Source: Ruminococcus sp. (GTDB lineage Bacteria > Bacillota > Clostridia > Oscillospirales > Ruminococcaceae). Taken from it: a stretch of DNA of 64,000 bases. How positions within the stretch are numbered: position 1 is the stretch's first letter; every line of letters begins with the position of its first letter. Positions 431 to 41,867 of the stretch are shown here, one piece after another. The notes below the pieces were generated by a model. That model saw only the letters and a program-made list of their open reading frames with translations, did no database searches and was not told the DNA's origin. The stretch lies in contig JAIDQQ010000041.1 in the NCBI GenBank assembly GCA_029062165.1, positions 4,034 to 68,033 of the forward strand. The letters run 5' to 3'. A program made the translations under genes and the position numbers.

Positions 431-499
431 TGTTTTTTCACCTCCTTTACGGTATTATATATCTATGACAAACAAGGCATATGCCCTGTACTACATAGG

Positions 500-3400
500 C
501 TATTCCTTATGTAAAATAGTCTTTATTCTGTATACGGTTGTTTTGTTTTCTGCATTGACGTACAATGCATCTTTTTCGCCTATTTCTGTATTCATGATTT
601 TATTTCTTTCGGCAAGAGGAACACTAATGAAACCGTCAATGATATTTCCGGCACGTGCTGAACCAAACAACATAAAGTTTGCCTTGGCACTTTTTGCCCT
701 GTAAAGTTTCGGGGCTTTTACGGAAGAAATCTCATCATTATCGACATCTGAAGCCATCCATGCGAATTTATATGGCAGATAGTTAAATAAACTGTCGTCA
801 AAATCATTGAGCATTTCCTTACTGGAATCTTCATAAATCATCATAAGAAGCGGTTTGTCGTTCAGTACGGACATATCGCCGTTATTTTCAAGGACAAGTT
901 TCTTTCTTTCCTCGAGTTCTTTTTTCCAGTCACTGCAAATGCTTTTCATATTCTGCGTACTTATTTCATATCTTGTTATGCAGTTATATTTGTCTGCCAG
1001 TCCGGCGTATTTCCTTACAGTAGCCTTGTCGAAAATGACAATCTGTACTGGTGCGGATTCAATACCGGCATTGATACATGAAATCATATATTTTATAAAA
1101 TTGGTTTTATCCGGTTGAGAAGTTCCGGCAATTATCATGTTAAGTCCCGAAAGATTCATTTTTATCGGCATGAGACTGTTATAATCGAAGCCGAGAATAA
1201 AGCTGTATGGCGTGAAATATGAAAAATATTTACTTCTCACGTCGTTTTCGATAAGCGGATTAGGTATTTCAGGAATTATCATAGCTTTTCTGTCCGGATA
1301 CTGCATATTGATTTTATTGACAAAAGCTTCAATATGCTTACCTCTGTCAGTTTCCTTTTCTCCCTGAAAACTCTTGTAAATCTGACAGTCAAGGGTTTTC
1401 TTGTCGACTTCCACAAGACAGCGTCCGGCAATATCGTCAACAGATAGTCTGAACGTATTGAAAAGATTTGTATATTCATCGGTGTTGGTATGATGCAGAC
1501 CTATACGGCACGTAAAATGTGAAATTAATTTATATTCAATGCCCTTGACACTACTATTTGTAACAACAACACTTATTCCGGCAGAGAGTCCCTCTTGCAG
1601 TACCGATTTCAGAACAATCTTATCATTAAGATAAAGTTCCTTGAAAGATGTGAAGTTATCTATCATAAGGATTATCAGCGGTAAATCGGAATAACCCGAT
1701 TCCTTATATGCCGTATATGAACTTACTCCGGCTTTATTGAATTTCTTTTTTCTTTCGGAAATTTCAGTGACAAGAAGTTTAAATAAATTATTCATTTTTT
1801 CTTCTTCGTTCTGTACAACAACGCCACCGACGTGTGCAAGATTATTGAACTGTTTCAGTATCATTGAAGAATAGTCTATAATATAGAAATTAACTTCTTC
1901 GGGAGTATATTTTTCCGCAAGAGTACGTATGATAAGCTGAAGTATATTTGTTTTGCCTGTCTGTAGTTCGCCGGTTATGAACATATGTTTCAGTGACATA
2001 TCAACGATATAATTTTCCTGTCTCTGATTTGCGGGGTCATCGAATATACCTAAATCGGCGTATATGCCTGTACCTGCTCTCTTCGGATTTTCCGTATAGG
2101 CAATGACTTTTTCAAGAGGTGGCTGGCATATATTCGGAAGTTTTTTCAGATTGCTTTTTTCAAAACATTCTGTAATCCTTGCCATAATGGCTTCTTTCTG
2201 TGAAATCATTTTCTTATCGTTTCCGGAATCACTGTTTTTTCTCGAAAATGCCGGTAGTCTTCTTCCGGCAAAGTCAACCAGTGACATTGTAAATTCTTTC
2301 TGCTGTTCAAGTAAATCGGCGTCGGCAGATGCTCCGCTATATGCTGACTGAAACAACTCGAATACTTCGTTATTGCCTACCATTAAATAAGCACGTCCGG
2401 CTTCCTTTATTTCCGAAGCAAGAGGAGTTTTTATAACTTCCTGACTGTCTGACGGTGTCTGGACTTTAAGACAGATACGGAATTTTGAATTACTGTCAAT
2501 CTGTGAATCAACCTGTCCTTGAGGTTTCTGTGTGGCAAGTATAAGATGTACTCCGAATGAACGTCCCACACGAGCTATACTGTTCAGTTCTGACATGAAA
2601 TCACCGTACTGTGCTTTGAGTTCCGCAAATTCGTCGACTATTATAATCAGGTGTGGCAGAACTGTTTCAACATTATGCGATTTCAGTTCATTGATATATT
2701 TGTTTATATGGTCAACTTTGGCATCTTCAAAAAGTTTCTTACGACGTTCTATTTCCGCTTTGATTGATATAAGTGAACGGTTTATGCCTTTACCGTCAAT
2801 ATCAGTTATGACGCCTAATGTATGCGGTAATGTCTTAAACTGATTGCCCATTCCGCCACCTTTGAAATCTATGATAAGAAATGCTACTTCTTCGGGGCTG
2901 AAAAGTGTCGCAACTGAAAGTATATAGGTCATAAGGACTTCACTTTTTCCTGAACCGGTTGTACCGGCAATAAGTCCATGCGGACCGTGTGCCTTGTCGC
3001 TGTCGTGAATGTCAAGATATACTGTTTCATTACCGGAACATACGCCGATAGGAACAGCCATAGACTTCGTGACATCTGATTTATTCCAGCGTGCTTTTAT
3101 GTCAAGTTCTTCAGCGGATTTTATACCTAAAAGCTGATATAATGTTATGTTCTTCGTGAGGGTGGATTCAAGGCTTACTTCCTCGCAGTATATGGAAGCA
3201 AGTTTATATGATATACTATATAAGTCACTGTCTTCAATGCGGGTATATTTAAAGTTTACTATTTCTGTATTTTCGTTTTTGATAATACGTCCTTTTGTAT
3301 CGTCGTCGACAAGGACAAGTTGCGAACAGCCTAATGGTATATAATCGCTGTGGTTTTCAAAGAATATGAAAGTTGCACCATAAAGTGAGGCTTTTTCTAT

Positions 3401-5044
3401 GTACTTTGAAACAGGGTGTTCCTTTATGCCGAAATCATTCATGACAAATACCACTATATGCGGAAGATGTACTTTTTCATTGGAGCAGGCTCTCTTGTCA
3501 AGTTCGGAATAGAGATATTCAAAAACGGTTGCTTTACTCTGGTTATCGCATACTATATTCCGGAATTTGTCATTATTTATGTGTCTGAACCATTTTATCC
3601 AGTCATATTCTGAACATCTTTCGTTATCCGTTATAAGAAAAGTAGTAACATCATCATAGTGCTGTCTGATACATAAATCAAAGTAGATTACTTTCATAAT
3701 TTCATAAAGATGTCTGTCAGTACCTACCACGCCGATTACATTTGCTTCCTTTAATTGCAGAAGAATAGGTGCGTCAGATATTTTCCTGTATTTTTCGGAT
3801 ATATTACAAGGTAAATCAACAAGTTCGTCGTCGTCGGATTCGTATTTTTCCTGTGGTTTGTAGTCAATTTTCCGGATTGCGTCGACGTCTCCGCTACCTA
3901 TTCTTATTTCAAGGAAGTCTTCGTCTTCGGGTACTCGGTCAAAAAGACTTCCCGAAAAATTCTTTGCGAATGCGATAGTTTCATTGCAACGGTAATATAT
4001 TCTGTTGAGTATCTGCCATTCTTCCTTACGCATATCACTGATTTCTTTTTCCTTGTCTTCTATATACTTTCTGTAACCCTGTTCCCTGTCCTGAATCTGC
4101 TGGAGATATTCTTTCTTGTCGTTCATTATGGTCAGAAAAGACACTATAGCACCCATTGACATAGAGCATACACTGAATAGTATAAATGAAAGATTTGTCT
4201 TTCCGACTACTCCACGCAGAAGTATTGTAAGGGCAATCATTGCAACCGTCGGCATGAGTTTCAATAACATATTGTTTTTAGGCTTAGGCGGTTTTTCCTT
4301 AGGCAAAAGAAGTTTTATTTCCTCGTCGTTTATCTTGAGTTTAAGACGGCTGTTACGTATGAATTTAGGATAATTCATAGCACCGATACTTTCGTTTATG
4401 TCCTTGCATGAAAACCTGTTCAGGCGGATATTATATTTTCTGTCCATGTATATATTTCTGCCGTGTATGTAAAAACAGCAGTCAAAAATATTGACGAAAG
4501 TAAACGGATATAATTGCAGGGAATTGCCGTCGAAAGATATTATTTTACCGTTATATGCAATGGTAGTACCTTTTTCGGCTTGTAGAAATATTTTCCCCTC
4601 TTTGCTTATGATTTCAATTTTAACCTTGGAAGCTGAAGAAGTATCTTTCAGCAGGTCACAACCTTTATCACTGCCGATTGTTACCATTGCAGATGATGAC
4701 CAGTCAACAGCACAGTTGAAAGTTATAGCCGTGAAATCATAGTCCTTAAGATAACTGTTCCCTGAAAGACTGTAATTCCTCGGAAGAACATTTATGACGG
4801 TTCTGTTACGGAGACCGTAATCAGAAAGAAGTTTGTCACCTGTAAGAAATGCTACAGGGTTTTCCGCAAAAAGATAACAGTCTTCTTTTATGTCTGTCCT
4901 GTAGTTCAGGCTGAAAGCGTTATTTATTGCAACAAACAAATCATAGGCGGTTATATCCGAAGATACTTCTATATCATATTCAGCTTTTACAGGATAAAAC
5001 AACTTGACAGTCATAATTATCTTGTTGTTATTCAATTTCCCCAT
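500..5044 (-). CDS. essC: Type VII secretion FtsK/SpoIIIE-family ATPase EssC (YukD-like plus FHA-like N-terminus, TM segments, three P-loop domains)
   Basis: 1514 aa. Walker A motifs are GTTGSGKSE (D1) and GELQTGKTN (D2), plus a degenerate GTSQPDKTN (D3). Two hydrophobic helices sit around residues 265-310. The N-terminal beta-grasp-like and FHA-like segments are typical of T7SSb EssC. The GGGAGG RBS sits almost against the ATG, so an in-frame TTG at 5035 is an alternative start. Confidence 0.9.
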   Translation of the reverse strand: MGKLNNNKIIMTVKLFYPVKAEYDIEVSSDITAYDLFVAINNAFSLNYRTDIKEDCYLFAENPVAFLTGDKLLSDYGLRNRTVINVLPRNYSLSGNSYLKDYDFTAITFNCAVDWSSSAMVTIGSDKGCDLLKDTSSASKVKIEIISKEGKIFLQAEKGTTIAYNGKIISFDGNSLQLYPFTFVNIFDCCFYIHGRNIYMDRKYNIRLNRFSCKDINESIGAMNYPKFIRNSRLKLKINDEEIKLLLPKEKPPKPKNNMLLKLMPTVAMIALTILLRGVVGKTNLSFILFSVCSMSMGAIVSFLTIMNDKKEYLQQIQDREQGYRKYIEDKEKEISDMRKEEWQILNRIYYRCNETIAFAKNFSGSLFDRVPEDEDFLEIRIGSGDVDAIRKIDYKPQEKYESDDDELVDLPCNISEKYRKISDAPILLQLKEANVIGVVGTDRHLYEIMKVIYFDLCIRQHYDDVTTFLITDNERCSEYDWIKWFRHINNDKFRNIVCDNQSKATVFEYLYSELDKRACSNEKVHLPHIVVFVMNDFGIKEHPVSKYIEKASLYGATFIFFENHSDYIPLGCSQLVLVDDDTKGRIIKNENTEIVNFKYTRIEDSDLYSISYKLASIYCEEVSLESTLTKNITLYQLLGIKSAEELDIKARWNKSDVTKSMAVPIGVCSGNETVYLDIHDSDKAHGPHGLIAGTTGSGKSEVLMTYILSVATLFSPEEVAFLIIDFKGGGMGNQFKTLPHTLGVITDIDGKGINRSLISIKAEIERRKKLFEDAKVDHINKYINELKSHNVETVLPHLIIIVDEFAELKAQYGDFMSELNSIARVGRSFGVHLILATQKPQGQVDSQIDSNSKFRICLKVQTPSDSQEVIKTPLASEIKEAGRAYLMVGNNEVFELFQSAYSGASADADLLEQQKEFTMSLVDFAGRRLPAFSRKNSDSGNDKKMISQKEAIMARITECFEKSNLKKLPNICQPPLEKVIAYTENPKRAGTGIYADLGIFDDPANQRQENYIVDMSLKHMFITGELQTGKTNILQLIIRTLAEKYTPEEVNFYIIDYSSMILKQFNNLAHVGGVVVQNEEEKMNNLFKLLVTEISERKKKFNKAGVSSYTAYKESGYSDLPLIILMIDNFTSFKELYLNDKIVLKSVLQEGLSAGISVVVTNSSVKGIEYKLISHFTCRIGLHHTNTDEYTNLFNTFRLSVDDIAGRCLVEVDKKTLDCQIYKSFQGEKETDRGKHIEAFVNKINMQYPDRKAMIIPEIPNPLIENDVRSKYFSYFTPYSFILGFDYNSLMPIKMNLSGLNMIIAGTSQPDKTNFIKYMISCINAGIESAPVQIVIFDKATVRKYAGLADKYNCITRYEISTQNMKSICSDWKKELEERKKLVLENNGDMSVLNDKPLLMMIYEDSSKEMLNDFDDSLFNYLPYKFAWMASDVDNDEISSVKAPKLYRAKSAKANFMLFGSARAGNIIDGFISVPLAERNKIMNTEIGEKDALYVNAENKTTVYRIKTILHKE

Positions 5045-29376: not shown

Positions 29377-30573
29377 TTATCTGATTTTCAAAAAAAATTC
29401 TGCGGTGACTTTTCCGCCGTTTCCGGTATTGGATATATCGATACTACCACCACACTTTTCGCACAGTATTTTACATATATAAAGTCCGAGACCAAAATGT
29501 GAACTGTTTTGTTCCCTGTCGTCACGATAGAACGGTTCTTTAGCGAGTTTAAGGGCTTTTTCGGAAAAACCTTTGCCGTCGTCAATTACAGTTATTTTCA
29601 TACAGTCATCTGATACAGAAATATCTGCTGAAATCTTATTATCCGCATATCTTACGGCATTGGACATTATATTCTCGTATACTTCCATGATAAGCTGACA
29701 ATCAATAAACAGAATATCCGTATCGCTCTGGAAACTGAATGAAAATTTTTTATCCTTACAGATATACTTTCCGGACTCCGAAAAATTTTCCCTTAAAGTA
29801 CCGGAATTTACTTCGGTGGGAGCAGGTACAATGTCTTCGAGTTTCTGGACGGCACTCATTTTATAGGTATAACTTTCAAGGCGGTTTATCTGACCATTCA
29901 TTTTTGAAAGAATTTCAGATAATTTTTCCGGAGATATATTTTCACTGTACTTTGTCAGAAATTCATTATAGCCCTTTAGTACCGTGAGGGGCGTTCTCAA
30001 ATCGTGCGAAAATGCTGAATTTAAACGTTTTCGCTCTTCGAGTGACCGCCACATATTGCGGTTGTTTTCGTCGAGAGCCTGACGCATATTGTCAAAAGCC
30101 GTGCATAATTGTCCGAGTTCGTTATTTTTCGGGTACTCTATCCGGAAGTCAAGTTGATTGCCGGAAATTTTCTGTGAACCGTCAAGCAGAATTTCAATAG
30201 GTTTCTGAAGTTCTCGCTTATAGAAAATAATTCCTGTAACCGCCACACACGATATTATAAATGACGGTATCACTAAAAACTGTGAATATACAATTATACA
30301 ATATATTATCATATATTTTCTGTCTGCAAAGGGTCTCTTGTCGGTTACAACATATTTGTCAATAAACTGTTTGTCATCGAAAAGTACTTCCATTTTTTCG
30401 TCACGACTTGGAATAAGTCTAACATCTTTGTGAAGTGTTTCGTAATAGTCCTGTAGATAGTTCGTGCCTATTCCGATACCCATTGAACCGGAAAAAGCTA
30501 CGAAAAAACATACTGACAGATAAACCGCAAAACGCCATTTCAGCGAGGCAAAACTTTTTTTCACTTTACCCAT
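29377..30573 (-). CDS. Sensor histidine kinase (HisKA plus HATPase_c)
   Basis: Two TM helices. H-box FSHDLRTPL. N-box SNAVRY. G-boxes DDGKGF and GLGLYI. Confidence 0.85.
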   Translation of the reverse strand: MGKVKKSFASLKWRFAVYLSVCFFVAFSGSMGIGIGTNYLQDYYETLHKDVRLIPSRDEKMEVLFDDKQFIDKYVVTDKRPFADRKYMIIYCIIVYSQFLVIPSFIISCVAVTGIIFYKRELQKPIEILLDGSQKISGNQLDFRIEYPKNNELGQLCTAFDNMRQALDENNRNMWRSLEERKRLNSAFSHDLRTPLTVLKGYNEFLTKYSENISPEKLSEILSKMNGQINRLESYTYKMSAVQKLEDIVPAPTEVNSGTLRENFSESGKYICKDKKFSFSFQSDTDILFIDCQLIMEVYENIMSNAVRYADNKISADISVSDDCMKITVIDDGKGFSEKALKLAKEPFYRDDREQNSSHFGLGLYICKILCEKCGGSIDISNTGNGGKVTAEFFLKIR

Positions 30574-31226
30574 TTATAACCTATCCCCCATACCGTTTCA
30601 ATATGATACGCTTCGTCGGCGAGTTTAGCACGTATACGGCGGATATGTTCGGCGACTACGGTTGAATTACCGTCGGCATCATAACCCCATATTTTTTCGT
30701 AGATTCTTTCCTTGTCGAATACCTGACCGCTGTTCATGGAAAGAAGTTCGATAATTTCAAACTCCTTACGGGCGAATTTAATTCTGATACCGTTTACCGA
30801 TACCGTTTTAGCGGAATAGTCAATACTTACTCCACCATAAAAGCGTACGTTTGAAACGGCTTCGGAACGGCGTTCACGTCTGATATGTGCCATAACTCTC
30901 GCCCCGAGTTCTTCAATGGAAAACGGTTTTATGATGTAGTCGTCGCCACCGGATGCGAAACCGTTTATTTTGTCGCTGTCCTCAACCCTCGCCGTAAGAA
31001 ACAATATCGGGCATGAAACATAGTCACGTATTTTACGGCATACGGAAATACCGTCCATATCGGGCATATTTATATCAAGAAGTATTATATCCGGATTCAT
31101 TTTTATTCTGTCAAGTACCGCCGTACCGTTTTCAGCCGTAATGACTTCATAGCCGTTTATCTCGAAATAGTCTCTTAGCAGACTTAATACGTCGGGTTCG
31201 TCGTCCGCTACAAGTATTCTGTACAT
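30561..31226 (-). CDS. OmpR/PhoB-family response regulator
   Basis: The receiver domain carries DD and D (ILLDINMPDMDG) and K (IIKPF). The winged-helix C-terminus ends in VWGIGYKW. Confidence 0.9.
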   Translation of the reverse strand: MYRILVADDEPDVLSLLRDYFEINGYEVITAENGTAVLDRIKMNPDIILLDINMPDMDGISVCRKIRDYVSCPILFLTARVEDSDKINGFASGGDDYIIKPFSIEELGARVMAHIRRERRSEAVSNVRFYGGVSIDYSAKTVSVNGIRIKFARKEFEIIELLSMNSGQVFDKERIYEKIWGYDADGNSTVVAEHIRRIRAKLADEAYHIETVWGIGYKWVK

Positions 31227-31526: not shown

Positions 31527-33044
31527 ATGAGCAAAGTAAGTAAGAAAATCGCAACAGTTGTTGCATCAATGTGCATCATGGCTACAGCAGTAGCTTCCAA
31601 CATAAGCGTTATGACAGCAGGTGCTGCTTCAGACTACATTTCAGACGGCTGGTACTACATCAAGAACATCAACAGCCAGAAGTACATTGACGTTGCAGGC
31701 GGTAAGGGCGTAAACGGTTCAAACGTTATTCAGTATCAGGGTAACGGCGGAGCTAATCAGAAATGGTACGTCAAGAACCTCGGTAACAACGTTATCACAC
31801 TCCAGTCAGGTGTAGGAAGTAATCTCATGCTTGACATCGCCAACGGTGCTAACGAAGACGGTGCAAACGTTCAGCTCTGGGAAGCTAATGGTGCAACAGC
31901 ACAGCAGTTCAAGGTTGTAAAGAACTCCGATAATGTTTACTGCTTACTTACTGAAAATTCCGGCGAAAGCAAAGCAGTTGACGTTTATGGTTGGTCAGCA
32001 GAAAACAACGGTAATATCAATCAGTGGTCATATAACGGTCTTGCTTGTCAGCAGTTCAAGTTTGAGGCTACTTCAAACGGTTCTGCACCGGCTTCAAGTT
32101 CTTCAAGTAGTTCCTCATCTTCAAGCAATTCCGGAAATACTATCGAAGTCAAGAACGGCGGTACTTCACTTTCAGACGCTATAAAGAAAGCTAAATCCGG
32201 TACAACAATTGTTATCAATGGTACTGTTAAGTCAGGTGCTGTAAAAGTTCCGGCAGGCGTAAACATCTCCGGTAAGAACAACGCTACTATTGACTTCTCT
32301 TCAACATCAGGCTCAAATGGCAGAGGTCTTTCATTCTACGAAAACGGCTCAAGAGTAGAAAACGTTACAATTATAAACGCTTCCGATAACGGTATCTACA
32401 TTGAGGGTTCTAACAATACTTTTGACCACGTTACAACAGCTTACAATGAAGACGCAGGTTTTCAGGTATGTAACGGCGGTTCAGATAACAAATTCCTTAA
32501 CTGCTACTCACACCACAATGCAGACGCTAAGGGCGAAAATGCTGACGGTTTCGCAAACAAACTCCATTCCGGTACAGGCAACTACTATGAAAACTGTATC
32601 GCTGAATACAACAGTGACGACGGTTGGGACTGTTACGCCGCACACGGTGCTGTAACTCTCGTAAACTGTCAGGCTAACTACAACGGCTACTGCGATGGTA
32701 TCTACGGTGACGGTAACGGATTCAAAATGGGTGGCGTTGATAACAAGACCGACGGCGTAAAGGCTCACCTTGACCCACTCAACCACGTACTTAAAGGCTG
32801 TACTGCTAAAGGAAATCTCGCTTCCGGTTTCGACAGAAACAATCAGAGCGGTGTCGTAACTATGGAAAACTGTACTGCTGACGGTAACAAGAAAAACAAC
32901 TACAACTGGCCCGCTAATGGTACACCTTCCGCACTCGGATATAAGGTAACATTCGGTAAAGCTAAGATTATAAACTCAACTTCAAAGAACGGCAAGAACA
33001 ATATCACAGGTGCAACACTCTCCGGAAATTGCAGTGGTTTCTGA
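31527..33044 (+). CDS. Secreted ricin-B lectin (CBM13-like) plus right-handed beta-helix polysaccharide lyase/pectate-lyase-like protein
   Basis: A signal peptide. Three QxW/QxF beta-trefoil repeats (NQKWY, AQQFK, CQQFK). A poly-Ser linker. Beta-helix repeats with NADGF, DDGWD and GNGFKMGG motifs. Confidence 0.7.
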   Translation: MSKVSKKIATVVASMCIMATAVASNISVMTAGAASDYISDGWYYIKNINSQKYIDVAGGKGVNGSNVIQYQGNGGANQKWYVKNLGNNVITLQSGVGSNLMLDIANGANEDGANVQLWEANGATAQQFKVVKNSDNVYCLLTENSGESKAVDVYGWSAENNGNINQWSYNGLACQQFKFEATSNGSAPASSSSSSSSSSSNSGNTIEVKNGGTSLSDAIKKAKSGTTIVINGTVKSGAVKVPAGVNISGKNNATIDFSSTSGSNGRGLSFYENGSRVENVTIINASDNGIYIEGSNNTFDHVTTAYNEDAGFQVCNGGSDNKFLNCYSHHNADAKGENADGFANKLHSGTGNYYENCIAEYNSDDGWDCYAAHGAVTLVNCQANYNGYCDGIYGDGNGFKMGGVDNKTDGVKAHLDPLNHVLKGCTAKGNLASGFDRNNQSGVVTMENCTADGNKKNNYNWPANGTPSALGYKVTFGKAKIINSTSKNGKNNITGATLSGNCSGF

Positions 33045-33166: not shown

Positions 33167-33901
33167 TCAGACAAATTTACTGAAATGTAGTTTTTCAATG
33201 AACTGTTTGTTTTCCTTGATATAAAATATAATGCTTATCCATTTACCTTTTTTATCGGATTTTCCCATTTTGTACGTATATAATATATCGGTATTTTCAG
33301 ATAATGATTTCTGACAGGCATCAAGAACACGTATTCTGAAACTGTCAAAACGTCGGTATTCTTCCGGACGTAAGCCGAGTAAACTTTTAAGTTCGGCAAC
33401 ATCAATTTCAAGCATTCCGATATTGAGATAACGTTTCATTAATTTGTACATACGTATCTGATTTTCTGATTTAAGAAAAAAATAATTCCAGAAATGATTT
33501 TTGAAATAATATTCACTGAAATCAGTAAGAAGCGGTAAAATGTTATTATTTGAATTAAATGAAAGAAATAATTTATTATTCTGATTTCTGTAAATTCCGC
33601 AGTCACTGAAGATGTGTGCCGTCCGGTTATAATTGTTTTCTTCCGGTATTTCTACAATCTTGTTCAGTAGTATGTTTATCGTCCGGCGGAAATAATTATT
33701 GTTTTCTTTTTCTATATCCATAATTTCACAGAAATCCTCAAATGAAAATTCAATATTTCCGTCGGAATTTTTTTCAGAATTTATTTTCGCAAGATATACG
33801 GTAAAAAAACGTTTTTCCGAAATAGTCATATCATTTATCAGATTTTCAAGGACTTTTATTTTTTCGGATAAACTTTTATCTTTTTTTCTTTTTTTCTTCA
33901 C
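33167..33901 (-). CDS. Rep_3/RepB-like plasmid replication initiator homologue (chromosomal orphan)
   Basis: The pattern is typical of Rep_3 initiators: an N-terminal segment (EKRFFTVYLAKI, FSFEDFCEIM) and a C-terminal segment (LKSLLGL..EEYRRFDSFRIRVLDACQKSL.ENTDI...Y...K...KWISIIFYI). Confidence 0.55.
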   Translation of the reverse strand: MKKKRKKDKSLSEKIKVLENLINDMTISEKRFFTVYLAKINSEKNSDGNIEFSFEDFCEIMDIEKENNNYFRRTINILLNKIVEIPEENNYNRTAHIFSDCGIYRNQNNKLFLSFNSNNNILPLLTDFSEYYFKNHFWNYFFLKSENQIRMYKLMKRYLNIGMLEIDVAELKSLLGLRPEEYRRFDSFRIRVLDACQKSLSENTDILYTYKMGKSDKKGKWISIIFYIKENKQFIEKLHFSKFV

Positions 33902-33920: not shown

Positions 33921-35195
33921 TCAATTGAGGTATTTTCTGTAATTATCCGCCGATTTTTCAGTAAGTCTGTAACCGCTCCTGAGACGTTCAGAAGCGATTT
34001 CCGATTTTATTCTTTTCGGTATATCCTGCTCCAGTATGTGACTGTCGTAAAAATTTAAGTCAAGAAATTTACCGTCCTTATCGTTGACGAAACAATTTTC
34101 ATAAAATTCAAGAAGTTCAGAATCTATTATATCTTCGTATGTTGAGTAAGGCACGTAAGGAATCCAGAATAAAATTTCCGCATAAACTTCATTGAAATCG
34201 AATATTATTCTGAAACGTCGGTTATAGTTGCTAAAATTCCAACTGAATTTATGGAAAATATTTTCGGACTTTTCGATTGTGAAAGTATCGTTCCGGAAAA
34301 TGTTTACTTTAGCATCGCCGAATATGCTTATATGTTTGATATATTCCAGTCTTTCGGGGAAAATCTGCTTTTCACGAAGTCTTAACGGATTCCACAGATA
34401 AACGTCACGGGTGGCGATACAGCTTACATTTTCGTATATAAGAACGTCATCATCAGAATTTTCATAAAGTTGTGTATCGTTTATCACAGGATGTTTTTTG
34501 TTCATACTGGAAAGATAAGTCCAGTTTTTACGCCGTGCGAAATCTTCCGGAAGTCTTATTTTTTCGAGATTATCGCAACAACTTAAAGAAGTTCCGTAAA
34601 ATTCGGTTACACTGTCGGGGATATAGATTTCACGTATAGATGAATTATGAAACGCAAGACTATCAATTTTTTCGAGATTTTCAGGAAGTATTATTTTTTT
34701 CGCCACAGAATCCTTAAAAGCATTGTAACCTATTGTTTTAACGTAATCCGGTACGTGTATAACGTCAGATTTTTCCCGACACCATACTAATTTATCGCCG
34801 ATAATAAGCGTTTCGGTATTTTCATAGAACGGCGTATCGGAAAAACTTCTTTCGCTACAACCGATAAGATATTCAGTTCCTACTACTTCTTCAATTGCGG
34901 AATCACAAAATGCGTAAAAACAATAATCTATTCTTCCCTGAAACGTTATCTTTTTAAGTTTTTCACACTTTGAAAAAACAAGCGATGATATATAACGTAC
35001 TCCGTCAGGTATGATTATTTCAGTTATTTCAGATTGTGCAAAGGCAAACAATTCTATTTTTGTTACCGGAAATTCGCCTATAAATTGTGGTACTTCTACT
35101 TTCCCACCGTTTCCGATATATTTTTTTATATGTATTTTTCCGTGTTTCCGCCGGAATACGTATTCTTTCAAAGCGTTTTCGTATGATATTTTCAT
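33921..35195 (-). CDS. BspA-type leucine-rich-repeat (LRR_5) protein, no signal peptide
   Basis: Repeats of the form I.IPD.V..I...AF..C..L..I are present, for example IIIPDGVRYISSLVFSKCEKLKKITF and IYIPDSVTEFYGTSLSCCDNLEKIRLP. Confidence 0.65.
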   Translation of the reverse strand: MKISYENALKEYVFRRKHGKIHIKKYIGNGGKVEVPQFIGEFPVTKIELFAFAQSEITEIIIPDGVRYISSLVFSKCEKLKKITFQGRIDYCFYAFCDSAIEEVVGTEYLIGCSERSFSDTPFYENTETLIIGDKLVWCREKSDVIHVPDYVKTIGYNAFKDSVAKKIILPENLEKIDSLAFHNSSIREIYIPDSVTEFYGTSLSCCDNLEKIRLPEDFARRKNWTYLSSMNKKHPVINDTQLYENSDDDVLIYENVSCIATRDVYLWNPLRLREKQIFPERLEYIKHISIFGDAKVNIFRNDTFTIEKSENIFHKFSWNFSNYNRRFRIIFDFNEVYAEILFWIPYVPYSTYEDIIDSELLEFYENCFVNDKDGKFLDLNFYDSHILEQDIPKRIKSEIASERLRSGYRLTEKSADNYRKYLN

Positions 35196-35205
35196 TTTAT
35201 CCCTC

Positions 35206-35234
35206 TTGACTTTTCGATATTTTTATGATATAAT
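35206..35234 (+). promoter_or_regulatory. Near-consensus promoter driving the tRNA-like RNA
   Basis: TTGACT (35206-35211), a 17-nt spacer, then TATAAT (35229-35234). Confidence 0.6.
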
Positions 35235-35280
35235 ACAAACGTGAAGCCGAATCCGTGTGGTGAGGTTTCACCGTGGAAAA

Positions 35281-35377
35281 ATTTATATAGTTCAGTGGCA
35301 GAACGTAAGCTCACCTGTGGTACTCCTACCACGACAAGAGCCGTGCAGTTACAGCGGTTCGATTCCGTTTGTAAATT
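35281..35377 (+). ncRNA. tRNA-like small RNA with non-canonical tRNA architecture
   Basis: The D-arm reads TA-GTTC-AGTGGCA-GAAC. The T-arm reads AGCGG-TTCGATT-CCGTT. A 7-bp all-A/T acceptor-like helix pairs ATTTATA with TGTAAAT and can extend to 11 bp. Between the D and T arms lie 47 nt instead of about 22, and no 5-bp/7-nt anticodon arm is present. That stretch contains the hairpin GTGGTA-CTCC-TACCAC. No CCA is encoded. Confidence 0.5.
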
Positions 35378-35383
35378 TTTCGT

Positions 35384-35417
35384 ATGCTTTCGCCTTTCGG
35401 TGAAGGCATATTTTTTT
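35384..35417 (+). terminator. Rho-independent terminator of the tRNA-like RNA
   Basis: An 11-bp stem ATGCTTTCGCC/GGTGAAGGCAT (two G-U pairs) with a TTTC loop, followed by A-T7. Confidence 0.65.
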
Positions 35418-35458
35418 ATTATTTTAACATATATCAGATGATATGTCAAGAGTTTTCC

Positions 35459-35487
35459 TTGACAAAACCTACAAAACAGGATAGAAT
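35459..35487 (+). promoter_or_regulatory. Promoter of the GH9 gene
   Basis: TTGACA, a 17-nt spacer, then TAGAAT. The GGAGG RBS sits before the ATG at 35520. Confidence 0.55.
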
Positions 35488-35519
35488 AATTATATATATG
35501 AATAAAAACGGAGGTCATT

Positions 35520-37964
35520 ATGAATCTGAAAAAACGTCTTATAGCCGGTGCAATGTGTACCGCTACCGCCTTATGTCAGCTTACAGCGAATCTGCCTGTA
35601 GCTTATTCCGCTGAAGAACTCGCTGAATCAATCGCAAACGATTCCGGACTTGATTACGATTTTGCACGTGCTTTACAGTATTCCATATATTTCTACGATG
35701 CCAATATGTGTGGTACGGAAGTTGAAGAAAACAATCGCTATTCATGGCGTGGGAACTGTCATACATATGATGCTGAAATACCACTCATACCTATGCCTGA
35801 CAGTAAAAGTTCCGGTACAAATCTTACACAGGAATTTATCGACAAATACAGGGATATTCTTGACCCTGACGGTGACGGTCTCATAGATGTCGCCGGTGGT
35901 TTCCATGACGCCGGTGACCATGTTAAATTCGGTATGCCCGAAAACTATGCCGCTTCTACAGTCGGCTGGGGTTATTATGAATTTCGTGATTCGTATGTGA
36001 AAACCGGTCAGCAGGAACACATTGAAACAATTCTCCGCTATTTCAATGACTATCTCATGAAATGTACTTTCCGTGACAAAGACGGTACAGTAATAGCACA
36101 CTGCTATCAGGTAGGCGACGGCGATATTGACCATGCTTACTGGAACTCACCGGAAGTAGACAGTATGGTACGTCCGGCATTTTTCCTTACTGCCGACAAA
36201 CCACAAACTGACTACGTAGCATCAGCGGCGGCGTCACTGGCGATAAACTACCTCAATTTCAAGGATACTGACCCTGAATACGCTGAAAAATCCCTCGATT
36301 ACGCAAAGGCTCTGTTTAAATTCGCTATGGATAATCCGAAAGAACTTAGCGACAATGAAGACGGTCCGAAAGGTTATTACCGGTCAAGCAAGTGGGAAGA
36401 CGATTACTGTTGGGCGGCTGCATGGCTTTACAAGATAACCGGCGAACACAAATATCTTGAAGAAATATATCCTAATTACGACTACTACGCCGCACCTTGT
36501 TATGTACACTGCTGGAATGATGTATGGGGTGGTGTTCAATGCGTACTGGGTGAAATATGTATGGAAAAACCTCTTAAAGACGGCGAACACGTCTATCCGG
36601 ATTTCATAGACGAGTTTAAAGAAGTAGCCGGTAAAAGTCCGTACGAGGAAATGAACTGCTGGGAATCCGTCGCAAAAGCTATTGAAACTTATATGTCCGG
36701 CGGTATCGGAACAGTTACACCGGCTGGCTACTGGTGGTTAGATACGTGGGGTTCTGCACGATATAATACAGCCGGACAGTTAATGGCACTCGTACACGAC
36801 AAGTACGTAAACGGCGGAAAAGCCGGTAAATACGGCGAATGGGCAAAAAGTCAGATGGAATATATTATGGGAAATAATCCGCTGAAACGTTCGTATATAG
36901 TCGGATATAACGAAAACTCGGTAAAATATCCGCATCACAGGGCGTGTTCCGGACTTACCAAATGCGAAGACCTCGACGAACACAGATACGTTCTGTACGG
37001 AGCTTTGGCAGGTGGTCCTGATAATGAAGACGGTCATAACGATACTACAGCCGACTGGATTTACAACGAAGTAACCATTGACTACAATGCGGCATTCGTC
37101 GGAGCGTGTGCCGGTCTGTATGAATTTTTCGGTACGGAAGATATGAAACCTACTAAAGATTTCCCACCTGCTCCGAAGTACAGCGGTGGTGCAAGCGGTG
37201 GTAATAATTACTGGGTCAATGCCTGCGGTATAGATGACCTCAAGGCTGACGGTTGCGGTGTTACTAAAATATCGCTTATGGTTATGACCGATTCTACCAA
37301 AATAAACAACGATATTTCAGTAAGATATTATTTCAACAGTTCGGAAATATCCGACGTGAACACCGTCACGGCAAGCAAACTCTATGACCAGTCGGAAGTA
37401 GAAGCCGGTGCGACAAGTTCCATAAGCGGTGTACAGAAATACGATAAATTACCCGATACTTATTACGTAGAAATAAAGTGGAAAGACTATAACATAGCAA
37501 ATTCCGGTAAAAAGTATCAGTTTACGCTAGGAATGTACTATGGCGACAAGTGGAATCCTGAAAACGACTGGAGTTATCAGGAACTTGAAATTTTCAAGGA
37601 CGATACTGCTTTTTTCGGTACGGGAAATGAAGTCCGTAATGATAATATATGTGTTTATTCCGACGGCATACTTGTCGGCGGTATCGAACCCGACGGAAGC
37701 AAACCGGAAACTTCTACAGCGGAAACTGATAAAATTCTTTACGGAGACTCAAATTGTGATAATGAAGTAAGTCTTTCTGATGCGGTATTTATAATGCAGT
37801 CGCTTGCAAATCCGGATGAGTTTAAACTTTCGGAGCAGGGTATGAAAAATGCTGATGTAGTCGGTAATGACGGCGTTACAAGCAATGACGCTCTTGCAAT
37901 ACAGATGGTAGGTATAAATCTTCTGAAACAAACCGATTTCCCACTTAATGAACTAATTGTATAA
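35520..37964 (+). CDS. Cellulosomal GH9 endoglucanase with a CBM3-like module and C-terminal type I dockerin
   Basis: A signal peptide. GH9 signatures GGFHDAGDHVKFGMP, YPHHRA and NEVTIDYNAAF. The dockerin carries a duplicated Ca-loop (GDSNCDNEVSLSD and VVGNDGVTSND). Confidence 0.9.
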   Translation: MNLKKRLIAGAMCTATALCQLTANLPVAYSAEELAESIANDSGLDYDFARALQYSIYFYDANMCGTEVEENNRYSWRGNCHTYDAEIPLIPMPDSKSSGTNLTQEFIDKYRDILDPDGDGLIDVAGGFHDAGDHVKFGMPENYAASTVGWGYYEFRDSYVKTGQQEHIETILRYFNDYLMKCTFRDKDGTVIAHCYQVGDGDIDHAYWNSPEVDSMVRPAFFLTADKPQTDYVASAAASLAINYLNFKDTDPEYAEKSLDYAKALFKFAMDNPKELSDNEDGPKGYYRSSKWEDDYCWAAAWLYKITGEHKYLEEIYPNYDYYAAPCYVHCWNDVWGGVQCVLGEICMEKPLKDGEHVYPDFIDEFKEVAGKSPYEEMNCWESVAKAIETYMSGGIGTVTPAGYWWLDTWGSARYNTAGQLMALVHDKYVNGGKAGKYGEWAKSQMEYIMGNNPLKRSYIVGYNENSVKYPHHRACSGLTKCEDLDEHRYVLYGALAGGPDNEDGHNDTTADWIYNEVTIDYNAAFVGACAGLYEFFGTEDMKPTKDFPPAPKYSGGASGGNNYWVNACGIDDLKADGCGVTKISLMVMTDSTKINNDISVRYYFNSSEISDVNTVTASKLYDQSEVEAGATSSISGVQKYDKLPDTYYVEIKWKDYNIANSGKKYQFTLGMYYGDKWNPENDWSYQELEIFKDDTAFFGTGNEVRNDNICVYSDGILVGGIEPDGSKPETSTAETDKILYGDSNCDNEVSLSDAVFIMQSLANPDEFKLSEQGMKNADVVGNDGVTSNDALAIQMVGINLLKQTDFPLNELIV

Positions 37965-37972
37965 AAACATAC

Positions 37973-38001
37973 TTGACAAATTATAGAACGCATGATATAA
38001 T
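37973..38001 (+). promoter_or_regulatory. Consensus promoter of the hydrolase gene
   Basis: TTGACA, a 17-nt spacer, then TATAAT. Confidence 0.55.
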
Positions 38002-38033
38002 TGCTTTATATTTTTTGATATGGAGGTTTTTAC

Positions 38034-39005
38034 ATGGAAAATCTGATTTTAACAGAAGAATGGGATAAAACTTTCCCGAAAAGCGATAAGGTTATTCATA
38101 AGAAAGTTACATTTCATAACCGTTATGGCATTACTCTTGCCGGTGACCTTTATGTACCGGAAAATGCATCGGGAAAACTTCCGGCAATAGCTGTATGCGG
38201 ACCTTTCGGGGCAGTCAAGGAACAGTCTTCCGGACTTTATGCCCAGACCCTTGCAGAACGTGGATTTATTACGATTGCTTTTGACTCGTCATTTACCGGT
38301 GAAAGTGGTGGTCAGCCACGTTACGTCGCCTCACCGGATATAAACACGGAAGATTTCTGTTCCGCTGTTGATTTTCTTTCCGTACAGGAAAATGTTGACC
38401 CTCAAAAAATAGGTATTCTCGGTATATGTGGCTGGGGTGGTATGGCTATAAATGCCACCGCTATGGATACAAGAATAAAAGCGACTGTTTCTTCCACAAT
38501 GTACGATATGACAAGAGTTAATGCAAAGGGATATTTTGACGAGGCAGACAGTCCGGAAGCACGTTATGAAACCCGCAAGGCTCTTAACGAACAGCGTATT
38601 AAGGACTATAAAGCCGGTGAATACGAACTGGGTGGCGGTGTCGTTGACCCTTTACCTGAAGACGCTCCGTTTTTTGTGAAGGATTATTACGACTACTATA
38701 AAACAGAACGTGGTTATCATAAGCGTTCACTTAATTCAAACGGTGGCTGGAATAAAACTTCTGCATTGTCGTTCATGAATATGCCGATTTTACAGTATGC
38801 CGGTGAAATAAAATCCGCTGTACTGCTTATTCACGGCGAAAAGGCACATTCATGTTATTTCAGCAGAGATGCCTATAAACTCCTTAACGGCGATAACAAG
38901 GAACTCATGATTATTCCGGAAGCTGTCCATACAGACCTCTATGACAGAACTGACATTATACCTTTTGACAAAATTGTATCTTTCTATAATGAATATCTGA
39001 AATAA
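38034..39005 (+). CDS. Alpha/beta hydrolase (dienelactone-hydrolase-like, Cys nucleophile)
   Basis: The nucleophile elbow is GICGWGG (G-x-C-x-G). A late HTD/His lies in IPEAVHTDLYD. The length and the order of secondary-structure-like segments fit an alpha/beta fold. Confidence 0.65.
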   Translation: MENLILTEEWDKTFPKSDKVIHKKVTFHNRYGITLAGDLYVPENASGKLPAIAVCGPFGAVKEQSSGLYAQTLAERGFITIAFDSSFTGESGGQPRYVASPDINTEDFCSAVDFLSVQENVDPQKIGILGICGWGGMAINATAMDTRIKATVSSTMYDMTRVNAKGYFDEADSPEARYETRKALNEQRIKDYKAGEYELGGGVVDPLPEDAPFFVKDYYDYYKTERGYHKRSLNSNGGWNKTSALSFMNMPILQYAGEIKSAVLLIHGEKAHSCYFSRDAYKLLNGDNKELMIIPEAVHTDLYDRTDIIPFDKIVSFYNEYLK

Positions 39006-39013
39006 AATATAAA

Positions 39014-39044
39014 ATCCGTATATTTCAAATATACGGATTTTTTG
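39014..39044 (+). terminator. Rho-independent terminator
   Basis: Stem ATCCGTATATTT/AAATATACGGAT followed by T6. Confidence 0.6.
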
Positions 39045-39133
39045 TTAAAAGAAAAAAATATTGTTTTTTACCGCACATTATAGCATTAGGAAACGTCAAT
39101 AAATATAGGAATATATTTACAGGAGGTTCACTT

Positions 39134-40255
39134 ATGAAAAGAAAATTAATCGCTATGATGTCGGCACTGGTTATGTGCTTTTCCGCCGTACCATATACCG
39201 CAAATGCCGAAGAAGTTCCGGAAAATATGCCGGAATGGATTCCACAGAATTTTACAGAGGCACTTCAATTTGATAACGAATACGGTATAACCCATATCGA
39301 AGACGGTCTTATATGCTGTGTCCGCAAGCAGTATGTTTACGCCGATGACAGTAATGAATATCTTACGGAATATTCCGGTGACGATTCAATGGGACTGCTT
39401 ACACTCTCCAGTGAGACATATAATTTCGTAATGCCTGAAAAGCCGGACGAATCCGACGAAGAAGCCTATCAGAAATATCTTGATTTTCTGCATAGCAACG
39501 GCATAAGTGAATTTTTTGCGGATAATGACCTTGTTTACGTTGATTATAATTATGAAGTAACTGTTTATACAATGAATCCGTCAAGCAGTGTTGAAATCAA
39601 CTGGATTGAAAAACACCCACAGACTAAAGAAATTGTAAATACTACAACATTGTCATTTGAATCGTCAGCGGAGGGAGTTGTTACCGAAACTGATTTATAC
39701 GGCTGGTTTCCGGACACTATGGGAGAATGTTATTCCTATACAAAAAATAACGGTGAAATTTCCATACATGACGGATACATTGTAGTATGTGACGAAGTAT
39801 GCTGGGACGGCGGTTACAGTATGATTGTTGAATCAATCGGCACGACAGACCTTGAATTAGTAAAAAAACAATCATCTTCTATGAGTTATATTGTTCCGCT
39901 TGATGGTGGTTCTTCAACACAAGTACGGCTTTATAAGCCGGTTACTTCCGGACAGGTAAAAGTTACTTTCAAACACGCAAGAGAGTGGGAAAAAAACGGT
40001 AAAGAAATAAAGAAAGTTATTAAATATTTCAACGTCGACGACAACGGTAATATATCTGAAATCGACGGTATAAACGACGGTGACTGCAATGGTGACGGAC
40101 AGTTTACTATATCCGACGTGGTAATGTTTCAGAAATGGTTATCCGGTACAGGTGAACTCACTGACTGGAAAAACGCTGATTTGACATTTGACAATAATCT
40201 TGATGTTTTCGATTTGGTACTCATGAAACAATTAATTATAAACGGAGGTATTTAA
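39134..40255 (+). CDS. Secreted dockerin-containing protein, unknown N-terminal domain (paralogue A)
   Basis: A signal peptide ending ANA-EE. The C-terminal dockerin reads GDCNGDGQFTISDVVMFQKWL...ADLTFDNNLDVFDLVLMKQ. Confidence 0.7.
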   Translation: MKRKLIAMMSALVMCFSAVPYTANAEEVPENMPEWIPQNFTEALQFDNEYGITHIEDGLICCVRKQYVYADDSNEYLTEYSGDDSMGLLTLSSETYNFVMPEKPDESDEEAYQKYLDFLHSNGISEFFADNDLVYVDYNYEVTVYTMNPSSSVEINWIEKHPQTKEIVNTTTLSFESSAEGVVTETDLYGWFPDTMGECYSYTKNNGEISIHDGYIVVCDEVCWDGGYSMIVESIGTTDLELVKKQSSSMSYIVPLDGGSSTQVRLYKPVTSGQVKVTFKHAREWEKNGKEIKKVIKYFNVDDNGNISEIDGINDGDCNGDGQFTISDVVMFQKWLSGTGELTDWKNADLTFDNNLDVFDLVLMKQLIINGGI

Positions 40256-40256
40256 C

Positions 40257-41867
40257 ATGAAAAGAAAATTAATAGCTATGATGTCCGCACTGGCAATATG
40301 TCTGCCGGTAATGCCGTATAACGTCAGTGCGATGGACGTTCCGGAAAAAATGCCGGAATGGATTCCGCAGAATTTTACAGAGGCACTCCATTTTGATAAC
40401 CAATATGGCAGAATACATATCGAAGACGATTTAATCTGTTGTGTATGGCAGATATACGATGATAAATGTCAGTATACTACAGGAATTTCCGGCATAACGG
40501 AAGTATTTTCCGATACGTTAGTATTCGAGATGCCACCTGAACCTGACAAATCCGACGAACAGGCATATCAGGAATACCTTGATTTTATACGTGAAAATAA
40601 TCTGACAGACTATGTTAATTATTTTAAACATTACGGCGAGGAAGTAAATATAAAATCCCCTTTCAAGTACGAAGTGGCAGTTTATAAAATGAATCCGTCC
40701 GGAAGTGCTGATATTCAACGCATATCAAAAGACGGTGACCGCATTGTAAGTGATACTACTTTTTCGTTTGAATCTTCAGCAGACGGCGAAATTACTGAAA
40801 CGGATATATACGGCTGGTTTCCTGATTGTATAAGCGAGTGTAACTTTGATACAGTTTCAGTAGTCAATGGACACATTGTTTTCTGTGATGATGTATGTTA
40901 TGACGGCGGATTTAGTCTGATGTTTGAACAGACCGGAACAGCAGAACTTGAATATGTTGCAGGCGGTAGTTTTTATTTAGAATCTATTGCACCGTCAGCA
41001 CCGGGAACAAGTCCTGTAGTAGTAAAAGCATATAAGCCTCTCAATGCCGGACAGGTTAAAGTTACTTTCAGACAGGCACAGGATTGGGAAGGTGGATATG
41101 TCGGCGAAACAGTTGTTAAGTATTATAACGTCGACGACAACGGTAATATAACTGAAGCAGATTGTAATATAACCGACGGTGACTGCAATGGTGACGGACA
41201 GTTTACTATATCGGACGTGGTAATGTTTCAGAAATGGCTTTCCGGTACAGGTGAGCTTACCAACTGGCAGAACGCTGATTTGACATTTGACAATAAACTT
41301 GATGTTTTCGATTTGGTACTTATGAAACAGGCTGTCATTGAAAATATGCCGACAATAGATTACGATTATAAGGAAGTTTCCAAAGACGATATAACCATAC
41401 TTAAACAGGAAATACTGTCAAGATACCCCGATACAGATATGAAAGACTTTACTTTTGTATACAATCCTGACCACCCACAAACATATAGTAAGCGTAAAGC
41501 CTTTGACATTTATTATAAAGGTGTAAAGTTAAAAGGCGACGAGCGTCACAATATATGTGCAAGTGTCTATACACGCCCAGACGGTTTAAGGGAAGTAGAC
41601 ATGAATCTCGTAAAAACTCCGGAAGAAATAATGGAAGTTGATACCAGTGTGAAATGTATTGACCGTTATGAAATGAAAAAACTTCTTAACAGTGAAGAAT
41701 ATCCGGAACTTACAATATATGTTAATTACTGGGATAAACCGGTACTCGCCTACAGACTGGAAGATGAAAACGGTTTCGGTGCAACTATATATGATGCGGT
41801 GACAGGCGAAGAAATAGAATATATCCCGTATCTTGTATGTGCTCTGCCGACGGATGATTTGCAATGA
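40257..41867 (+). CDS. Secreted dockerin-containing protein (paralogue B) with an extra roughly 190-aa C-terminal domain
   Basis: It shares the signal peptide, the MPEWIPQNFTEAL block, the WFPD block and the dockerin with paralogue A. It continues past the dockerin. Confidence 0.7.
   Translation: MKRKLIAMMSALAICLPVMPYNVSAMDVPEKMPEWIPQNFTEALHFDNQYGRIHIEDDLICCVWQIYDDKCQYTTGISGITEVFSDTLVFEMPPEPDKSDEQAYQEYLDFIRENNLTDYVNYFKHYGEEVNIKSPFKYEVAVYKMNPSGSADIQRISKDGDRIVSDTTFSFESSADGEITETDIYGWFPDCISECNFDTVSVVNGHIVFCDDVCYDGGFSLMFEQTGTAELEYVAGGSFYLESIAPSAPGTSPVVVKAYKPLNAGQVKVTFRQAQDWEGGYVGETVVKYYNVDDNGNITEADCNITDGDCNGDGQFTISDVVMFQKWLSGTGELTNWQNADLTFDNKLDVFDLVLMKQAVIENMPTIDYDYKEVSKDDITILKQEILSRYPDTDMKDFTFVYNPDHPQTYSKRKAFDIYYKGVKLKGDERHNICASVYTRPDGLREVDMNLVKTPEEIMEVDTSVKCIDRYEMKKLLNSEEYPELTIYVNYWDKPVLAYRLEDENGFGATIYDAVTGEEIEYIPYLVCALPTDDLQ

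Follow-up and report, generated by a model that had tools for sequence, protein, structure and literature searches.

A predicted tRNA-derived small RNA family encoded head-to-head with a leucine-rich repeat protein gene in Ruminococcus-type bacteria

A stretch of 64,000 nucleotides (nt) from Ruminococcus sp. (GenBank assembly GCA_029062165.1, contig JAIDQQ010000041.1, forward-strand positions 4,034 to 68,033; hereafter the window, numbered from its first letter) carries at 35206-35417 a putative small RNA gene in which the upper half of a transfer RNA (tRNA) is combined with a different structure in place of the anticodon arm. Sequence comparison shows this element to be one member of a conserved, structured, apparently tRNA-derived family of small RNA genes of about 140-180 nt, which is absent from Rfam 15 and undescribed. 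The predicted RNA, with its swapped anticodon arm and conserved leader hairpin, forms a compact module with the gene for a presumably cytoplasmic protein with leucine-rich repeats (LRRs) of the LRR_5 type. The tRNA-derived small RNA may be dedicated to this LRR gene, as an antisense repressor and probably also as a ligand of the LRR protein, a proposal to which about even weight is given for and against. A previous sequence-only reading of the window had recognised a stand-alone structured tRNA-like RNA, and tRNA mimic remains a fair description of its shape; its suggestions of a regulatory RNA for a neighbouring cellulase gene, an integration site and a YrlA-like RNA found no support, and the linkage to the LRR gene and the antisense geometry were missed.

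The small RNA gene, on the forward strand, has the organisation of an independent transcription unit. A consensus scan located the promoter and terminator that had been described as bracketing the transcript: a sigma-70-type promoter at 35206-35234 (TTGACT-17-TATAAT with an extended TG, 11 of 12 consensus matches) and an intrinsic terminator at 35382-35418, consisting of a hairpin at 35382-35411 (13 pairs with G-T counted, loop of 4) followed by T7. The predicted transcript extends from about 35241 to about 35417 (177 nt) and folds at -62.7 kcal/mol, with z = -5.0 against dinucleotide shuffles; together with conservation at 18 further loci, this places the element far beyond chance. The structured leader noted earlier ahead of the core is a 31-nt hairpin, P0, at 35241-35271, which holds a conserved symmetric CGAG/CGAG internal loop of tandem G.A pairs.

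The core which follows the leader has the topology of a tRNA, with the 5' and 3' ends lying within an acceptor-like helix and the central arm closed. This helix, P1, is formed by 35276-35287 (an A-run, then AUUUAUA) and 35370-35381 (UGUAAAU, then a U-run and C). It had been described as seven A/T pairs extendable to 11 base pairs (bp); the A/T-rich 7-bp helix and its extension are present, but ATTTATA/TGTAAAT includes one U-G pair and the helix reaches 12 bp in the window. The D-arm and T-arm were both found where they had been reported. The U8-A9 linker and D-arm occupy 35288-35304 (GUUC-AGUGGCA-GAAC at 35290-35304, with A14, G15, G18 and G19), and the T-arm lies at 35353-35369 (AGCGG-UUCGAUU-CCGUU), preceded at 35347-35352 by a variable-loop-like linker, AGUUAC, the last base of which is the equivalent of C48. 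The expected position of the anticodon stem-loop is taken by a central arm at 35305-35346, composed of a GUA/UGC helix, a bulged A, a GCUC/GAGC helix with a CG bulge and, at its tip, a variable hairpin, P4 (35317-35332, GTGGTA-CTCC-TACCAC). The earlier description of the stretch between the arms was thus right about this hairpin and about the lack of an anticodon arm, and off by one in length, which is 48 nt (35305-35352) and not 47. No CCA is encoded at the 3' end of the RNA, as had been noted, and the long variable arm is absent from the class II position.

Homologues were sought by two routes. On the RNA side, one genome per species was scanned for the pattern of this D-arm and this T-arm at a distance of 42-60 nt. 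The matches were mainly archaeal intron-bearing tRNAs and assorted odd tRNAs, together with four true homologues (L047, L059, L098 and L104) in Ruminococcus-type metagenome-assembled genomes (MAGs); a scan of Joint Genome Institute (JGI) metagenomes with the core pattern added the more divergent L106. On the protein side, homologues of the LRR protein of the window were searched and the contigs of twelve of them were looked up. The resulting set comprises 18 homologous loci and the window (19 loci, 17 distinct sequences after collapsing near-identical copies), all on Ruminococcus/Oscillospiraceae metagenomic contigs from gut and rumen samples. A covariance model, R1, built from the transcript without its terminator, scores these loci at 104-155 bits and unrelated odd tRNAs at 39 bits or less, and finds a single copy in the window at 35241-35382.

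The folded structure is supported by two alignments. RNAalifold, applied to a MAFFT alignment of the 17 distinct transcripts that was not fitted to structure, recovered the leader hairpin, the acceptor-like helix, the D-arm, the GUA/UGC and GCUC/GAGC helix, the variable hairpin, the T-arm and the terminator, with compensatory changes in 23 of 39 pairs. In the model-based alignment, which is fitted to the structure so that its counts lean towards it but with which the unfitted analysis agrees, standard pairs fill 95.8% of the pair cells as against 84.5% in column shuffles, and 25 of 42 pairs have changed on both sides; none of 500 shuffles reached either value. Sliding the 3' partners by one to three columns reduces pairing to 40-54%. 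The sequence-only reading had proposed covariation analysis of homologous regions and had tied its interpretation to conservation in close relatives; the element is present at the 18 further loci, and each of its variable helices shows compensatory changes. G-U cells greatly outnumber A-C cells (60 vs 8), which indicates that the folded molecule is the plus-strand RNA and not its complement; a folded RNA on the minus strand, as a leader of the LRR gene, was rejected on this count.

Conservation extends over the whole transcription unit. The promoter is kept at the equivalent position in all 19 loci, the terminator is conserved in all loci with a stem that covaries, and all nine pairs of helices 1-3 of the leader have changed on both sides while remaining 95-100% paired. 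Six of the eleven modelled pairs of P1 and two of the five pairs of the T-arm carry compensatory changes. In the family P1 is continued to 11-12 bp by the pairing of the A-run of the leader with the U-run of the trailer, and in most relatives there is a bulge or mismatch on its 3' strand within the first seven pairs.

The central arm is irregular and 40-72 nt long in all 19 members, and in none does it form an anticodon stem-loop with a 5-bp stem and a 7-nt loop. Its base is near-invariant (ACGUAAGCUC ACCU ... AACAGAGCCGUGCA), bulges and internal loop included: the GUA/UGC helix does not vary, the GCUC/GAGC helix covaries (U-A to C-G in three sequences), the internal loop ACCU / (N)AACA is conserved, and the invariant bulges and internal loops read ACGUAAGC..ACC / AACAG.GCCGUGCA. 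The tip varies freely in length and sequence with pairing retained; all six pairs of P4 covary, and its length ranges from 15 to 32 nt across the family. In the near-identical relatives L098 (4054-4204, minus strand) and L104 (6767-6916, plus strand), an 8-nt tandem duplication (GTGGTACT) lies within the variable hairpin, from which the tip can be seen to tolerate changes in length.

General detectors place the element at the edge of the tRNA family. ARAGORN, run over the whole window with introns allowed, reported neither a tRNA nor a transfer-messenger RNA (tmRNA), and Rfam 15 gave no match at gathering thresholds with default filters. With lax filters, applied to 35100-35520 only, the tRNA family RF00005 aligns end to end at 35281-35377 with 37.2 bits (gathering score 29), using the acceptor, D-arm and T-arm and accommodating 43 nt where the 17-nt anticodon arm belongs; sensitive tRNA searches can thus label the element as a tRNA. 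No other Rfam family came near to matching (T-box none up to E = 10, tmRNA none, RF01764 none), which upholds the earlier view that the element is not a standard tRNA, tmRNA or T-box leader. An intron-containing tRNA was rejected on the ARAGORN result and because the intron-bearing and odd tRNAs from the pattern scan reach no more than 39 bits with R1, and a T-box leader by the Rfam result, by the constitutive-looking terminator that follows the RNA and by the differing downstream genes. RF00005 gives 37.2 bits in the window, 19.5 in L106 and no hit in L117, while R1 gives more than 100 bits throughout, so that the core peculiar to the family is under tighter conservation than the likeness to tRNA.

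It is very improbable that the element is an unusual but genuine tRNA, processed, CCA-tailed and charged by an anticodon-ignoring synthetase as an amino-acid donor used by the LRR protein. The RF00005 alignment is full except for the anticodon arm, and a 7-bp acceptor register with U73 can be drawn in the window sequence. Pair 3:70 of this register is, however, U-A and not G3:U70; all 19 sequences lack an anticodon loop, a long class II variable arm is absent, and the acceptor helix is extended by leader and trailer and interrupted within its first seven pairs in most members. Conservation of a structured leader would also be unexpected if that leader were simply removed.

The tertiary contacts of the tRNA elbow are largely retained. 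U8, A14, G15, G18, G19, the 7-nt T-loop (UUCGAUU or UCCGAUY), the C48 equivalent and the elbow nucleotides U54-U55-C56 and A58 are kept in 17 of the 19 sequences. In the two others, L117 and L123, the D-loop is AAUUA and has lost its GG, the T-loop has 5 nt, and the core and the LRR partner are kept. In these two the Levitt pair has changed on both sides, from G15:C48 in the 17 sequences to A15:U48, the classic tertiary covariation of tRNAs. A retained elbow is what would be expected of a trans-acting decoy, the upper half of which would titrate or bait enzymes that recognise elbow and acceptor (RNase P or Z, the CCA-adding enzyme, modification enzymes, or tRNA-targeting enzymes of phages or toxins), with the LRR protein reading the state of the bait. 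The RF00005 score of the window and the accessory or mobile neighbours at several loci (a relaxase with restriction-type genes, Imm26, a Y-family polymerase, Rep3) also agree with a decoy. This explanation is nevertheless unlikely: L117 and L123 have dispensed with the D-loop GG and the 7-nt T-loop and yet maintain the core and the LRR partner, P1 runs well beyond 7 bp, is usually bulged and lacks an encoded CCA, and PADLOC gave no match.

The constant companion of the RNA is the LRR gene, located in the window at 33921-35195 on the minus strand. All six loci reached through the RNA carry the LRR gene head-to-head with it, and beside each of the twelve LRR homologues with contigs that were looked up, which share 38-75% identity with the protein of the window, the RNA lies at the same position and spacing, so that the linkage holds in 18 of 18 homologous loci as well as in the window. 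The remaining neighbours are unrelated between loci and include a GH9 cellulase, PAP2, an Imm26-domain protein, an aminoglycoside acetyltransferase, a relaxase with restriction-type genes, a restriction-type helicase, a Y-family polymerase cassette, folate genes and a deformylase. Since the LRR gene is constant and the other neighbours differ, the conserved unit consists of the RNA and the LRR gene only, and GH9 and Rep3 are incidental. A third conserved gene was considered and rejected, as the genes that follow the LRR gene in L108 and L124 are similar neither to Rep3 nor to each other.

These observations bear on two of the earlier proposals. A regulatory RNA for the GH9 cellulase had been suggested; GH9 lies downstream of the RNA in the window and L047, the downstream gene differs from locus to locus, and a strong terminator separates the RNA from GH9. 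A degenerate tRNA kept as an attachment (att) site had been the other suggestion; covariation and invariant internal loops persist in unrelated contexts, and a Rep3-type replication initiator directly after the LRR gene occurs only in the window (33167-33901, minus strand) and L047 (6633-7505). The group of explanations comprising a decaying tRNA pseudogene, an att remnant and a cis-acting leader of GH9 draws on these two neighbours, Rep3 in the window and GH9 in the window and L047; it is effectively refuted by strong purifying selection with compensatory changes over 19 loci, by the conserved promoter and terminator of the RNA itself and by the absence of Rep3 and GH9 from most loci. In the close relative L104, Rep3 is missing and the LRR gene is followed directly by a ricin-lectin/pectate-lyase-like gene, a difference which looks like an insertion or deletion.

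Searches of plasmid and phage collections with the element (BLASTN) and with the C-terminal domain of the LRR protein (TBLASTN) gave no match, nor did scans of viral contigs, whether made with the DNA pattern of the core or with the profile of the protein; the module is thus not evidently plasmid- or phage-borne. Its scattered, non-syntenic and partly mobile contexts may be said to resemble those of toxin-antitoxin or defence modules, a label which has no support from databases. No relevant publication came up in literature searches on tRNA-like RNAs associated with LRR proteins or on a motif of this kind in Clostridia.

The relative arrangement of the two genes suggests an antisense relationship. 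About 10 nt separate the LRR start codon (35195, minus strand) from the -35 hexamer of the RNA promoter, and the Shine-Dalgarno sequence of the LRR gene, AGAGGGA (about 35200-35206), abuts that hexamer with an overlap of 1 nt; the spacing between RNA promoter and LRR ribosome-binding site (RBS) is constant over all loci. As the -35 element of the RNA sits on this RBS, the LRR promoter must be inside or beyond the RNA gene. A promoter scan found no good LRR-strand promoter within the RNA gene, and a likely one just beyond the RNA terminator, at 35421-35449 on the minus strand (TTGACA-17-TAAAAT with an extended TG). An equivalent promoter (10-12 of 12 matches and TG), at -246 to -272 from the ATG, is present in the window, L047, L059, L104, L112, L121 and L126, and a weaker distal one in L113. 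Where the distal promoter is used, the two promoters would face each other and the LRR messenger RNA (mRNA) would have a 5' untranslated region (UTR) of about 220 nt in which the complete small RNA is matched by perfectly complementary sequence. At some of the six loci with no distal promoter above threshold, a co-directional upstream gene could read through into the LRR gene.

This geometry would in itself agree with pure cis-antisense action, in which the RNA only represses the LRR mRNA through transcriptional interference and RNase III-type cleavage of the duplex, the protein never contacts the RNA, and the tRNA shape serves only for nuclease resistance and for loops that initiate pairing. 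The face-to-face promoters, the nesting of the RNA wholly within the putative LRR 5' UTR, the constant spacing of promoter and RBS and the lack of an RNA-binding signature in the LRR protein are all in its favour. Complementarity is, however, given by construction, so that the invariant unpaired nucleotides, the tRNA tertiary pairs and the Levitt covariation would be unneeded, and the distal LRR promoter was undetected in 6 loci; restriction of the RNA to this role is possible but doubtful.

The product of the LRR gene has 424 amino acids (aa), with a BspA-type LRR_5 solenoid followed by an orphan C-terminal alpha/beta domain (residues about 236-424). Neither a signal peptide nor a hydrophobic segment can be seen at the N terminus of its translation, and it is therefore taken to be cytoplasmic. 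Proteins with LRRs of the BspA type are plentiful in gut bacteria, where they are usually considered surface adhesins. The search yielded 35 full-length relatives (407-469 aa, 38-100% identity), all from Ruminococcus/Oscillospiraceae-type sources. Pfam recognises LRR_5 only, NCBIfam and PADLOC assign no functional family, and no nuclease family matches. The AlphaFold model (pLDDT 93.5) shows the LRR solenoid and, from about residue 236, the alpha/beta domain, which when modelled alone has a pLDDT of 85.7; with the full-length model, Foldseek matched only BspA-type (surface) LRR structures. A profile of the C-terminal domain retrieved 35 proteins from 1.84 billion representative proteins, and of ten more distant proteins with this domain that were scanned, nine are longer LRR_5 proteins and one has no Pfam match; LRR_5 repeats accompany the domain in all the full-length hits examined. 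The LRR protein thus gives no independent clue to function.

According to the preferred explanation, in which the small RNA is both antisense repressor and ligand, transcription of the LRR mRNA would start just beyond the RNA terminator and produce the complementary 5' UTR, and an abundant, stable, tRNA-shaped RNA would repress the LRR gene through face-to-face transcriptional interference and antisense pairing. A specific partner would recognise the RNA through its invariant unpaired nucleotides, and the LRR protein is the most plausible candidate, being the one conserved component besides the RNA. Two observations are counted in favour of such a partner: the unpaired core nucleotides are invariant while the LRR protein diverges to 38% identity, and the RF00005 score falls off over the family while the family-specific core is retained. 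The RNA would be neither aminoacylated nor engaged in decoding, and the pair might behave as an RNA antitoxin with its protein or as a sensor ribonucleoprotein.

Several observations weigh against this explanation. An LRR-strand promoter above threshold was not found in 6 of the 16 loci scanned, and full antisense overlap may not hold everywhere. The C-terminal domain of the LRR protein has no match in Pfam, among PDB sequences or among PDB folds (best fold E = 2.3), and the isoelectric point of the protein ranges from 5.3 to 8.8, which is not consistently basic, with no RNA-binding signature. So stable a tRNA-like fold would be unusual for a labile antitoxin RNA. The window sequence occurs in none of the public RNA runs searched. 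For L106, contigs of four metatranscriptomes match the LRR open reading frame exactly at a depth of 2-4 and skip the RNA gene and the 5' UTR, although such contigs drop short and rare species. Just downstream of the RNA terminator of L106, an element of about 32 nt (4076-4107) reaches a depth of 150-220; as it is embedded in many different metatranscriptome contigs, it is a short dispersed repeat.

Among the known systems, YrlA is nearest in spirit. It is a stand-alone non-coding RNA in which D-arm, T-arm and acceptor-like elements mimic the tRNA elbow, is encoded beside the gene of a repeat-protein partner, and has an acceptor-like stem closed as a stem-loop, while its 5' and 3' ends form the Ro-binding stem (PMC4201824). 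The LRR-linked RNA is likewise a putative non-decoding elbow mimic encoded beside a repeat-protein gene, but here the ends form the acceptor-like helix and the arm at the anticodon position is closed, an inverted topology. The partner is an LRR_5 protein and not Ro60, no TROVE/Ro60 gene occurs among the neighbours in any of the 19 loci, and Rfam gives no match besides tRNA; the earlier YrlA-like option is therefore set aside. The yjdF riboswitch, an aptamer derived from tRNA-Lys which has kept the D-loop/T-loop elbow for a new function, is located in the 5' leader of its target gene, on which it acts in cis, and has azaaromatic compounds as ligands (PMC9142559). It provides a precedent in Firmicutes for a bacterial tRNA-derived regulatory RNA; the LRR-linked RNA differs in having its own promoter and terminator and in lying on the strand opposite to its partner, and RF01764 does not match. 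In tmRNA, a tRNA-like domain mimics acceptor and T-arm without an anticodon (PMC3985003). The LRR-linked RNA shares this mimicry and the absence of an anticodon, but has a canonical D-arm and U-A at 3:70, and neither ARAGORN nor Rfam identifies it as tmRNA. A true D-arm is lacking in tmRNA, which has G3:U70, CCA after processing, pseudoknots and a tag reading frame.

Antisense RNAs of type I toxin-antitoxin, plasmid and transposon systems, such as SymR/symE, Sok/hok and RNA-OUT/RNA-IN, are simple stem-loops with targets that are mostly small and usually hydrophobic toxins. The LRR-linked RNA would resemble them as a small stable RNA opposite the 5' UTR of one gene, in a compact module with scattered contexts, and the overlap with the mRNA fits in at least seven loci as judged from predicted promoters. 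It differs from them in its tRNA-like tertiary structure and invariant internal loops, in a soluble partner of 420-470 aa instead of a small toxin, and in ending about 46 nt upstream of the start codon, which leaves the RBS uncovered. Type III antitoxins such as ToxI are tandem repeats located upstream of, and co-directional with, the endoribonuclease toxin that processes them. The idea of a structured RNA which binds and neutralises a protein encoded next to it is common to both systems; the LRR-linked RNA is, however, single-copy, without repeats and divergently oriented, and its partner matches no nuclease family.

A more ambitious possibility, considered improbable, is a new prokaryotic ribonucleoprotein in which a cytoplasmic LRR receptor would hold the tRNA-shaped RNA as bait and relay its cleavage, modification or sequestration through the orphan C-terminal domain. 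Tentative triggers would be enzymes of phages or toxins directed at tRNAs, or an altered tRNA-processing machinery, and the logic would be analogous to the guard and decoy strategy of plant LRR immune receptors, with an RNA as the decoy.

If the RNA is expressed, it would add a new family to the few bacterial tRNA-derived non-decoding RNAs (tmRNA, YrlA, yjdF) and another re-use of the tRNA scaffold, with elbow and acceptor retained and a conserved module of protein-binding or ligand-binding type in the place of the anticodon arm. A subfamily of signal-less BspA-type LRR proteins appears tied to the RNA, which gives a first functional handle on this class of proteins, and the RNA-LRR module is a compact two-gene system that is directly testable.

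Some further features are confined to individual loci. In L113 (4000-4566, minus strand) and L115 (1063-1539, minus strand), a second short LRR_5 gene (188 and 158 aa, respectively) lies immediately downstream of the RNA and in its direction, in this sub-lineage only. In L059, a Ruminococcus MAG, the LRR frame (43-597, minus strand) has only 184 aa beside an intact RNA gene, and the partner gene may be truncated or frameshifted. The surroundings in the window (29377-31226, minus strand; 31527-33044, plus strand; 35520-41867, plus strand) code for a two-component system, a ricin-lectin/beta-helix protein, a GH9-CBM3-dockerin cellulase, an alpha/beta hydrolase and two more dockerin proteins, which identifies the host as a cellulosome-producing Ruminococcus-like bacterium.

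Other conserved tRNA-like sequences were also encountered. A different one is present in Cytophagales/Microscillaceae (L016 7193-7274; L045 1814-1896; L068 1890-1971 and L097 3039-3120, the last two on the reverse complement), with a normal D-arm and T-arm separated by about 55 nt and no obvious anticodon arm, and is unrelated in sequence to the LRR-linked family. Additional conserved groups of tRNA-like sequences with a long insert were found in Bradymonadales (L026, L042, L054 and L085) and Hyphomicrobiales (L057, L058, L089 and L102) and in L084, which is the same as the viral L002. Since R1 scores them at 39 bits or less, these groups are separate entities, some of which may be intron-bearing or unusual tRNAs.

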